Shown here one piece after another: positions 44,055 to 45,593 of a DNA stretch of 64,000 nucleotides (position 1 is the stretch's first letter; each line of letters begins with the position of its first letter). This DNA comes from Alphaproteobacteria bacterium (GTDB lineage Bacteria > Pseudomonadota > Alphaproteobacteria > RF32 > CAG-239), in the NCBI GenBank assembly GCA_045593845.1, contig JAZNXK010000011.1:97198-161197 (forward strand), read 5' to 3'. Under the pieces are notes generated by a model. It was not told the DNA's origin. It did no database searches and saw only the letters and a program-made list of their open reading frames with translations. The translations under genes were made by a program, and so were the position numbers.

Positions 44055-45593
44055 ATGAAAAAAAATGAATTAACAAAGGAATTAACCCCGAAACAAAAAG
44101 GGTTGATCATGAAAGTTTCTTTGAGCCGTCACTTCTTGTTGTCTGATGAGGAGACGATGGAATTGCTCAATCTTCCACACGACATTATGCGGGAGCAATT
44201 GTCCAACTACATTGAAACCCGGCAATCATTGCCTGATGAGGTGCTGACTAAGATTTTTCAACGTCACCAAGAAATTGGCGATGATATGCTTGAGCTTTGC
44301 CTTGATAAGCTTTTGCAATTTCCTGATGCAGCGCAGATTGAGATTTTCAATCTGCCGGAAAAGCTCCGAGATAAGCTGTTGTTGGAGTTTGTGAAGAAAT
44401 CTTCACGATACTTTTGTGATGAGGCTGTGATGAAGATTTTGGATCTTCCGCATGAAATGATGATGAAAGTCATCACAACCTATCTTGGACATGCAAGCAT
44501 ACCGCCTAGAGAGGCACAATTGAAAATTGCGTGCTTCGAGCAAAGTGTGGCCGAAAAAATATTTTCGGTTTATCGTCACATTCCCAGGGCTGACGTTTTC
44601 GACGTGGTCTTTGAAAAGTGGGATGCTACAGCGAGGAAGAAATTCTTCCTTGACAATATTAAGAAGATAGGTAGCTTCGAATTCAATAATTGTCATGGTC
44701 GCCTTGAGAGAATCTTGGATTTGTCCTTGAAATTTCCGGCAAAAGATCGGGACAAGTTGCTGTCAGCTTTTTTTGACAGAGGTTATATGGATGTCAATCT
44801 CTTGAAAAAAGTCTGCACAATTGAAGAACCTTCGAGGAAGCGTTTGTTGATGCGTAAATTGTATTCGACGGATGCCATCGACGTTCTTATGGAGCTGCCC
44901 TTGCCGACCAGAACAGAATTGCTGATCCATCAAATCAAAAATGATGATTATTGCAATTTTGTGGGGCGACAAATTAGGGAGTTCTTCAATTTTCCTGAGC
45001 CATATTGCACTCGCGTGCTGAAGGCATATGTAAAAAGATATGACAATCTTTTTGAGTATGCCAAAGAAGAGGTTATGGCAATGCCAGAGCCTTTGCGTAC
45101 GGAACTGGTATTGAACAGCCTTAAGGGGTTTGAAAGCAAAGAATTGTTTGAACTGCCGGAGCCCTTGAGAACCAAGGCTCTTTGTGCCTATTTTTCTACA
45201 GATAAGCCGGAAGAGCATGACCTTTTTATGGTTTATGAACTGCCCGATGAAACCAGAACACAGGTTCTTTTGGCAGCAATAACCGCAGGAAAAAACAGGT
45301 ATCTGTTTAATTACGGGGTTTGGGAGAGTCCGCTCAAGAGTATGCTCTTTGATTTGCCGGAGCCGTCGAGAACCAAGGTCCTAACCGGCTATGTGGAAAA
45401 CGGTTGGGAATTTGATGATCCATGGATGTTGTGGCTGCTCCCAAAAGAAGTCAGAGATTCGCTTATCGAGGTGTATGCCGCGAAACACAAACGTTTCAAC
45501 CCTTCTTATTATGAAGAGAAAATCAAAGAGCTCTTCGGTGAAGTTCCTGATAATTTTTTAAAAGCAAAAATCTCGCTAAACGTTAGTGTTTAG
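44055..45593 (+). CDS. large tandem-repeat protein (512 aa), >=11 degenerate ~30-37-aa repeats with core hxLPEPxRTxxLxxY
   Basis: Repeats read from the translation: FNLPEKLRDKLLLEF, LDLPHEMMMKVITTY, MELPLPTRTELLIHQI, FNFPEPYCTRVLKAY, MAMPEPLRTELVLNSL, FELPEPLRTKALCAY, YELPDETRTQVLLAA, FDLPEPSRTKVLTGY, WLLPKEVRDSLIEVY. Confidence 0.55.
   Translation: MKKNELTKELTPKQKGLIMKVSLSRHFLLSDEETMELLNLPHDIMREQLSNYIETRQSLPDEVLTKIFQRHQEIGDDMLELCLDKLLQFPDAAQIEIFNLPEKLRDKLLLEFVKKSSRYFCDEAVMKILDLPHEMMMKVITTYLGHASIPPREAQLKIACFEQSVAEKIFSVYRHIPRADVFDVVFEKWDATARKKFFLDNIKKIGSFEFNNCHGRLERILDLSLKFPAKDRDKLLSAFFDRGYMDVNLLKKVCTIEEPSRKRLLMRKLYSTDAIDVLMELPLPTRTELLIHQIKNDDYCNFVGRQIREFFNFPEPYCTRVLKAYVKRYDNLFEYAKEEVMAMPEPLRTELVLNSLKGFESKELFELPEPLRTKALCAYFSTDKPEEHDLFMVYELPDETRTQVLLAAITAGKNRYLFNYGVWESPLKSMLFDLPEPSRTKVLTGYVENGWEFDDPWMLWLLPKEVRDSLIEVYAAKHKRFNPSYYEEKIKELFGEVPDNFLKAKISLNVSV

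Follow-up and report, generated by a model that had tools for sequence, protein, structure and literature searches.

The 64,000-nucleotide stretch of DNA analysed here, hereafter the window (positions 97,198 to 161,197 of contig JAZNXK010000011.1, assembly GCA_045593845.1, from an alphaproteobacterium), carries two genes on its plus strand, a large one at 44055-45593 (512 amino acids, aa) and a small one at 327-749 (140 aa). By comparison of repeat-unit profiles, their products are shown to belong to one repeat-protein family. Both code for helical repeat proteins of a small family that had no name before and is so far known only from Alphaproteobacteria of gut and rumen. Their most likely function is that of an intracellular (cytoplasmic) protein-protein interaction scaffold or adaptor, a role that we infer with about even confidence.

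The direct comparison of the large and the small protein (BLASTP E-value 0.011; hhalign 63%) would be weak evidence by itself; their kinship was established only through the wider family. An exhaustive search of 1.84 billion representative proteins with the profile of alignment A1, the family alignment of the large protein, returned 37 clusters. Four are of the orthologue type and 33 are short proteins (88-410 aa) built of 27-30-aa units with the pattern LCxEAQLKIFDLP-x3-5-EILLEYIK. With so few clusters in such a collection, the family is rare. A hidden Markov model (HMM) of the unit was built on 32 units from ten distant relatives (P0018-P0034), with no window sequence among them. This HMM was compared with 1325 open reading frames (ORFs), taken from the window together with the fetched loci, and within the window it matched two and no others, 324-746 (E 2e-12) and 44031-45590 (E 4e-12). 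The unit consensus common to both proteins is L-C-x-E-A-Q-L-K-I-F-D-L-P-x3-5-E-I-L-L-x-Y-I-K. From a logo of 127 units, the conserved positions are L1 (84%), C/S2 (78%), E4 (61%), A5 (67%), Q/E6 (88%), K8 (75%), F10 (74%), L12 (80%), P13 (81%), E17 (62%) and Y22 (90%), and the variable ones are 3, 14, 16, 20-21 and 25-26. Two further searches returned little. A di-repeat profile (A4) found only 2 matches among 309 candidates in a word-indexed database of 5.8 billion proteins, so that no census can be taken from that search, and a pattern scan of metagenomes found only 4 loci, with unrelated neighbours.

The large ORF is a functional gene under purifying selection. Fourteen homologue clusters with 37-97% identity are colinear with its product over 480-512 aa, and the ratio of nonsynonymous to synonymous substitution rates (dN/dS) is 0.21 against locus L024 (97% aa identity), 0.18 against L023 (90% aa identity) and 0.23 against L002 (65% identity). 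As for the repeats, the motif [LFM]-P-x3-[RKM]-x2-[LIVM] is found 8 times in the protein, while 5000 shuffles gave a mean of 0.32 and a maximum of 3; relaxed versions of the motif extend the count to 12 units of the LP, FP or MP type. An HMM made from the six clearest C-terminal units scored 36-43 bits on each of them and recovered a seventh unit in the N-terminal half. The N-terminal half of A1 also matches its C-terminal half in hhalign (96.8% probability, E 2e-10). Since the halves match each other, the whole large protein is built of one diverged unit.

Two modules can nevertheless be told apart. The N-terminal module (residues 29-205; 44139-44669, plus strand), supported by the unit profile and the exhaustive-search matches, contains hairpins R1-R6 of 27-31 aa. 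It is of the 'LCxEAQLKIFDLP...ILLxY' type that is common to the short relatives: against the unit profile of the distant relatives, residues 119-148 reach 96.5% and residues 28-58 reach 75%, and the matches of the exhaustive search fall on A1 profile positions of about 20-200. The C-terminal module (residues 206-481; 44670-45497, plus strand), supported by the unit HMM and by hhalign to the relative P0049, contains hairpins R7-R15 of the 'h-x-L-P-E-P-x-R-T-x-x-L' type. Residues 343-380 of this module (nt 45081-45194) hold two PEPLRT units with a spacing of 24 aa, which are similar to those of the Pfam family DUF4116. At the DNA level, Tandem Repeats Finder detected no tandem repeats in the gene, and 31-nt segments are only 61-87% alike, so the repeat duplications are old.

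For the small gene, the assignment is based on orthologues, the unit HMM, the structural model and the terminators. Two orthologue clusters were found at 64% identity, and the protein comprises four 27-aa hairpin repeats (residues 16-123, nt 372-695) followed by a C-terminal cap helix. The gene forms a monocistronic unit, with a terminator-like hairpin on either side (233-260 and 755-777). Locus L017 keeps its synteny: a gene for an NTP-transferase comes first, then the small gene, and then L25, Pth and YchF.

The AlphaFold2 model of the large protein, computed on A1, is all-alpha, with a mean predicted local distance difference test (pLDDT) score of 89.5 and a predicted template modelling (pTM) score of 0.74. 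Its 35 helices make up about 15 hairpins of 24-36 aa, in each of which a turn joins a short helix to a long one, and a cap at either terminus. The model of the small protein, computed on alignment A2, has a pLDDT of 86.1 and shows the four 27-aa hairpins and the cap helix. With Foldseek, the large model retrieved designed armadillo proteins, importins and PP2A-A, at a template modelling (TM) score of at most 0.29, and fold searches with the small protein retrieved ankyrin domains only. The models thus show a predicted fold of a familiar class, the alpha-alpha solenoid, and no specific structural family was identified among the matches. The original prediction, which was made from the DNA letters, had described the two ORFs as they exist here. 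Its count of at least 11 repeats in the 512-aa protein is correct and conservative when compared with the 15 or so modelled hairpins, and its description of a solenoid-like protein is borne out by the model and by the comparison of the two halves. The 140-aa protein does carry the same repeat type according to the unit HMM, but in four units and not in three.

The original prediction could not place the motif in TPR, PPR, Sel1, HEAT, ankyrin or LRR, and no sequence model of these families matches. Models from Pfam, NCBIfam, PHROG and PADLOC gave no significant match on either window protein, and they assigned none of the 38 relatives to a family, P0049 (DUF4116) apart. The TPR, Sel1, PPR and LRR models of Pfam had no match at E <= 10 in the window proteins or at E <= 0.1 in the relatives, and a single LRR_12 trace (E 0.43) was below significance. 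No Pfam HEAT, Arm or Ank model matched the two window proteins or the 38 relatives; the unit profile reached 0.07% in hhalign against a consensus designed ankyrin. Searches of PDB with the A1 and A4 profiles gave only sub-threshold matches, to Pumilio (E 0.011), to region 4 of SigW 'IQQKILKLPDKYRTVIVLKYI' (E 0.07) and to PksL. Neither the eight 36-aa three-helix repeats nor the significant sequence match that would mark a PUF protein was found. HAAS (PF22564) appeared in 3 relatives at E 1e-3, below its curated threshold, and a sub-threshold echo of Sigma70_r4_2 was seen in the relatives.

DUF4116 (PF13475; gathering score 24.9 bits) is a repeat without known function and a predicted alpha-solenoid (PMC8078820). 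We considered whether the proteins, rather than forming a new family, might be diverged members of a repeat family already known, be it this one or a degenerate ankyrin. The argument for it comes mainly from P0049, which is a significant, if marginal, match in the exhaustive A1 search (E 5.5e-4 against 1.84e9 proteins). When aligned with hhalign, A1 and P0049 reach 89.7% over 116 columns, and two 24-aa units of P0049 (ALxYVPEPLRTEALCLAAVQQDG) reach 96% over 35 columns against residues 343-377 of the large protein. However, the Pfam model matches neither window protein at E <= 10, and among the 38 relatives only P0049 passes its threshold (130 bits), P0020 leaving a trace at E 0.14. The resemblance is mostly one of the PEPLRT-x-AL motif, and P0049 resembles neither the N-terminal half nor the generic unit of 27-30 aa; the units here are 27-36 aa long, against 24 aa in DUF4116, and the ankyrin results above speak against that family. 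We therefore regard this explanation as unlikely. An HMM of the P0049 unit reached only the 7-10-residue core PEPLRT(E/K)AL(C) of the large protein (E 0.43), and given this reach and the silent Pfam model, membership of the large protein in DUF4116 is not claimed. The original prediction had named beforehand what would refute it, namely that the repeats be placed with confidence in a family whose function is known, and no such placement was obtained. Its claim of a novel family holds as far as no named sequence family matches, but the fold is ordinary and the C-terminal PEPLRT repeats have a distant link to DUF4116.

How such a protein may work can be sketched from the unit. Each unit consists of a short helix (E-A-Q-L-K-I-F), a tight turn with L-P and a longer helix (E-I-L-L-x-Y-I-K), and the units stack into an alpha-alpha solenoid, with about 15 of them plus caps in the 512-aa protein and four plus a cap in the 140-aa protein. 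The conserved residues would build the hydrophobic core and the inter-repeat contacts, and the binding surface, and with it the specificity, would lie in the variable positions. These comprise the inter-unit loop, two sites on the long helix and the 3-5 residues that follow L-P. For the cytoplasmic location, no hydrophobic stretch of a signal peptide for the Sec, Tat or lipoprotein route was seen in the N-termini MKKNELTKELTPKQKGLIMKVSLS... and MKTKKIKKIISGCYQSTPEE... (by inspection, no predictor run), and the orthologues of the small protein do not share its Cys. No link of the family to phage or defence was found with PHROGs, PADLOC and viral contigs, the last being searched with the A1 profile and the back-translated EAQLKIFDLP pattern.

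Several points weigh against a scaffold. No recurrent partner gene was found across the examined loci, and neither a conserved neighbour nor a fused catalytic domain was seen, so that the role is drawn from the fold class only. The AlphaFold2 models were derived from shallow alignments, of 15 and 3 sequences. The locus contexts differ, being dtd/tRNA/L28, L25-pth-ychF, ExbBD, Hsp20/LpxI, PBP1A and S6-S18-L9/L10-L12. The polar residues E4, Q/E6, K8, E17 and K24 are conserved in each unit, and the ligand could instead be a repetitive one, for example a polymer or a nucleic acid. Finally, the sequences would leave room for non-classical secretion through a type I or type IV secretion system (T1SS or T4SS).

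The last point leads to a different explanation, already suggested in the original prediction, in which the proteins are eukaryote-like effectors that are exported by a T4SS or T1SS and bind proteins of an animal or protist host. The modelled ankyrin-like fold of the small member is in line with it, and so is the closest named family, DUF4116, which is largely eukaryotic and of which P0049 is a member. In locus L016 a family member has an ankyrin-repeat gene at a distance of 5 kb, the LPxE..IF motif gives sub-threshold F-box-like echoes, and the family is expanded with variable unit numbers, as is often the case in effector families. Against these observations, there is no visible signal peptide, and no secretion-system gene was found in the annotated ORFs of the 64-kb window or in any fetched locus. 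The large protein is conserved in length and fixed in architecture, with dN/dS of about 0.2. The F-box-like match spans 13 residues only (58-70) and stays below threshold (15.6 bits against a cutoff of 24.3, E 0.014). The window also encodes enolase, GAPDH, PGK and a HydA/HydB-type [FeFe]-hydrogenase, and from glycolysis together with this hydrogenase a free-living fermentative anaerobe is suggested rather than an obligate intracellular symbiont. Taken together, the effector suggestion is unsupported, and export to a host appears distinctly unlikely. When the effector and the protein-interaction scaffold are considered as the two alternatives that had been offered, it is the scaffold that we retain as the most likely role.

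The number of units varies among family members, and paralogues often occur in tandem. Adjacent paralogues number at least 9 in L009, 3 in L014 and 2 each in L012 and L016. The L009 array (469-5902) is the largest expansion seen, its paralogues (84-311 aa) lying on the same strand with 40-aa mini-ORFs between them and a gene for PBP1A adjoining. Arrays of this kind are also what would be expected from poly-immunity loci, in which the family would serve as an immunity or antitoxin-type protein of inter-bacterial conflict, and a strain-variable stretch does adjoin the large gene. Yet no toxin, Rhs, CdiA or type VI secretion system gene stands beside any member in the examined loci, PADLOC gave no match, and both window members are single, syntenic and conserved genes amid housekeeping genes. 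An immunity function is accordingly considered very unlikely.

The scaffold candidate in the large gene has regulatory sequences of its own. A motif scan revealed a promoter cassette at 43973-44012 (plus strand), consisting of TTGACA at 43973-43978, TTGACA at 43985-43990 and TATAAT at 44007-44012. The first TTGACA is 12 nt upstream of the second, and the second forms TTGACA-16-TATAAT at 43985-44012, which agrees with the sigma-70 consensus at 12/12 positions. The double TTGACA and the -10 element, together with the AT-rich leader behind them, recur in conserved form in L002, L001 and L003, where the proteins behind them are just 42-65% identical and where, for L001 and L003, the genomic context differs. 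In the four-locus upstream alignment the leader (44013-44054, plus strand) has many invariant columns and no obvious Shine-Dalgarno sequence. The start at 44055 is supported despite this, because the N-terminal peptide ELTPxQKxL is conserved at the amino-acid level in the orthologues and in the short relatives. A mini-ORF of 3 codons (ATG TTT TAT TAA) is present in the leader at 44033-44044, and mini-ORFs of 3-5 codons are found at homologous positions in L001, L002 and L003 (ATG TTA AAT TAA in L001 and L002). It may be due to chance in AT-rich sequence, or it may be a translational control element.

At the other end of the gene, the scan found an intrinsic-terminator-like hairpin at 45566-45603 (plus strand), with a 17-bp stem followed by a T run, which is kept in L002, L023 and L024. 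Judged by these sequence features, the large gene is a self-contained single-gene transcription unit with its own predicted promoter and terminator. The alignment with L024 and L023 also exposed an allele-specific C-terminal extension of about 13 aa (45552-45593, plus strand). The orthologues terminate at ...GEVPD(DL); in the window, the ancestral TGA stop has been lost through a deletion of 4 nt with respect to L023 and L024, and as a result the ORF reads into the terminator stem and gains these residues.

The large gene lies between a tRNA-Gly gene (43569-43643, plus strand) and a tRNA-Arg gene (47496-47572, minus strand). In L002 (65%) and L024-L026 (97%) it occupies the matching site, preceded by dtd and tRNA-Gly and followed by tRNA-Arg and L28. 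Between it and tRNA-Arg, the gene content differs: in the window there are ORFans of 114, 181 and 151 aa, in L024 genes for 81 aa, 337 aa and a DUF4177 protein, and in L002 genes for 72 aa and a DUF4177 protein. The three window ORFs (45604-45948, 46052-46597 and 46609-47064, minus strand, within 45604-47439) have no Pfam, NCBIfam, PHROG or PADLOC match, and only the 114-aa one recurs, as a near-identical copy in L023 (the 90% strain). Since the large gene and its promoter are kept in strains with differing downstream genes, it is a stable resident at the edge of a variable stretch and not islet cargo. A mobile-element origin was rejected, with GC content not deviant, synteny in L002 and L024-L026, and variation confined to the adjacent genes. 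Of the original prediction's textbook promoter in a tRNA-flanked islet, the promoter is real as a motif and the flanking tRNAs are real, but the gene is not part of the islet's cargo.

An 87-nt direct repeat (91% identity) was observed upstream, at 43635-43721 and 43862-43948, which is single-copy in L002. At the start of each copy, 9 nt match the end of tRNA-Gly (CCCGCTCCA / CCTGCTCCA); a terminator-like hairpin follows, and after it another, small hairpin (GGGATTAAAATCCC). The arrangement resembles a duplication of the tRNA 3' end and an att-like site, or else a decayed tRNA duplication.

Elsewhere the surroundings of the family are diverse. In L001 and L003 (42-48% identity) the large gene and its promoter are found between a tRNA-Trp region and an ExbBD cluster, and other relatives are near rpoB, PBP1A, S6-S18-L9 and L10-L7/L12, and Hsp20/LpxI. 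Genes for ribosomal proteins or tRNAs are close by in several, not all, loci, a proximity that may be due to chance. A modular nucleic-acid-binding or translation-associated repeat protein, similar to PUF, PPR or mTERF and contacting its polymer through the conserved polar residues, would account for such placements (beside L25; S6 and L7/L12; L17, dtd, tRNA-Gly and L28) and for the recurrence of those residues in unit after unit. On the other hand, the structural matches are all generic solenoids at 5-13% identity, a pI of 5.95 makes the large protein mildly acidic, other members are in unrelated contexts, and no per-unit specificity pattern emerged. We rate this explanation as the most improbable of those considered. 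A bolder variant, for which we see only a slim chance, holds that the LP-hairpin unit defines a separate class of bacterial repeats, which has expanded in anaerobic Alphaproteobacteria of gut and rumen and whose polar residues read a repetitive ligand, and that the ribosomal and tRNA placement and the strong constitutive promoter point to a role in translation or RNA handling. If so, the family would be for bacteria what the ribosome-associated solenoids of the PUF, PPR or HEAT kind are for eukaryotes. The intracellular scaffold or adaptor remains the function that we favour.

Those loci of the family that can be placed look alphaproteobacterial. The only match in the genome collection, RUG10873, is labelled 'uncultured proteobacterium', and the relatives' loci have 36-50% GC. 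Locus L003 carries an atpI-a-c-b-b' operon and DciA, L021 carries LpxI, and the RpoB of L006 scores 1489 bits against PDB 7ye1, compared with 1240 bits for the next RNA polymerase. We take 7ye1 to be of Caulobacter and these atpI-a-c-b-b', DciA, LpxI and RpoB features to point to Alphaproteobacteria. The sample names RUG, Ga0247611, XIEF21 and GLEN20 suggest an origin from ruminant gut metagenomes.

Some other features of the window were recorded in passing. Two paralogous zinc deaminase genes (dCMP_cyt_deam_1 / MafB19-deam type) are situated 4 kb apart at 36891-37358 (minus strand) and 41059-41514 (plus strand); both are also in L002, and one is presumably TadA. At 48124-49527 and 49527-50606 (minus strand), two adjacent genes encode conserved proteins of 467 and 359 aa, which are also in L002 and L024. 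Neither Pfam nor NCBIfam gave a match for them, and in the L002 orthologue there was just a faint one to TPR_12. The HydA-type [FeFe]-hydrogenase (590 aa) at 61093-63866 (minus strand) adjoins a gene with NuoF/HydB-type Pfam domains, and from their sequences the pair resembles an electron-bifurcating hydrogenase, here in an apparent alphaproteobacterium. In the last 2 kb of the window, GC rises to 45% and the otherwise strong GC skew vanishes.

If the family is confirmed, the catalogue of alpha-solenoids gains a repeat family defined by its unit consensus, fold and taxonomic range, and DUF4116 gains a bacterial relative. The family is also a marker for a little-studied lineage of anaerobic Alphaproteobacteria of gut and rumen, in which it is present in several copies. 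The regular and short 27-aa unit, confidently modelled from very few sequences, could be of interest to designers of repeat proteins. Without a partner or a phenotype, the biological picture is so far left unchanged.

When compared with known systems, the family stands at different distances from each. Its likeness to region 4 of sigma-70, HAAS and the F-box N-terminus is limited to a one-hairpin motif, LPxxxRxxLLxY, of 13-28 residues, and these are not repeat families; we treat the SigW, HAAS and F-box echoes as convergence at the level of the motif. The similarity to HEAT, armadillo and TOG proteins is one of generic fold only, since two-helix units of 24-36 aa are found here, as opposed to 37-47 aa in HEAT and 42-aa three-helix units in ARM. 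Ankyrin repeats share the hairpin geometry of a short helix, a tight turn, a longer helix often ending in Gly, and a loop. They differ in unit length (33 aa against 27-30 aa here) and in their TPLH and GADVN signatures, which are missing here; moreover, the modelled inter-unit loops of 3-6 residues are too short for the ankyrin beta-hairpin finger, and superpositions gave 5-12% identity. With DUF4116, the common ground extends to sequence. The motif h-x-h-P-E-P-L-R-T-E-A-L-(C) occurs both in the C-terminal units of the large protein and in P0049, and both are solenoids of hairpins with a short helix, Pro and a long helix. The units there are 24 aa long and follow the pattern h-x-Y-x-P-E-x-L-R-x-[DE]-...-A-V-x-x-x-G, those here are typically 27-36 aa, and the N-terminal 'LCxEAQLKIFDLP' units of the large protein are dissimilar to it. 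We therefore regard DUF4116 as the closest named relative, probably a distant homologue of the C-terminal module rather than the family to which this protein belongs.

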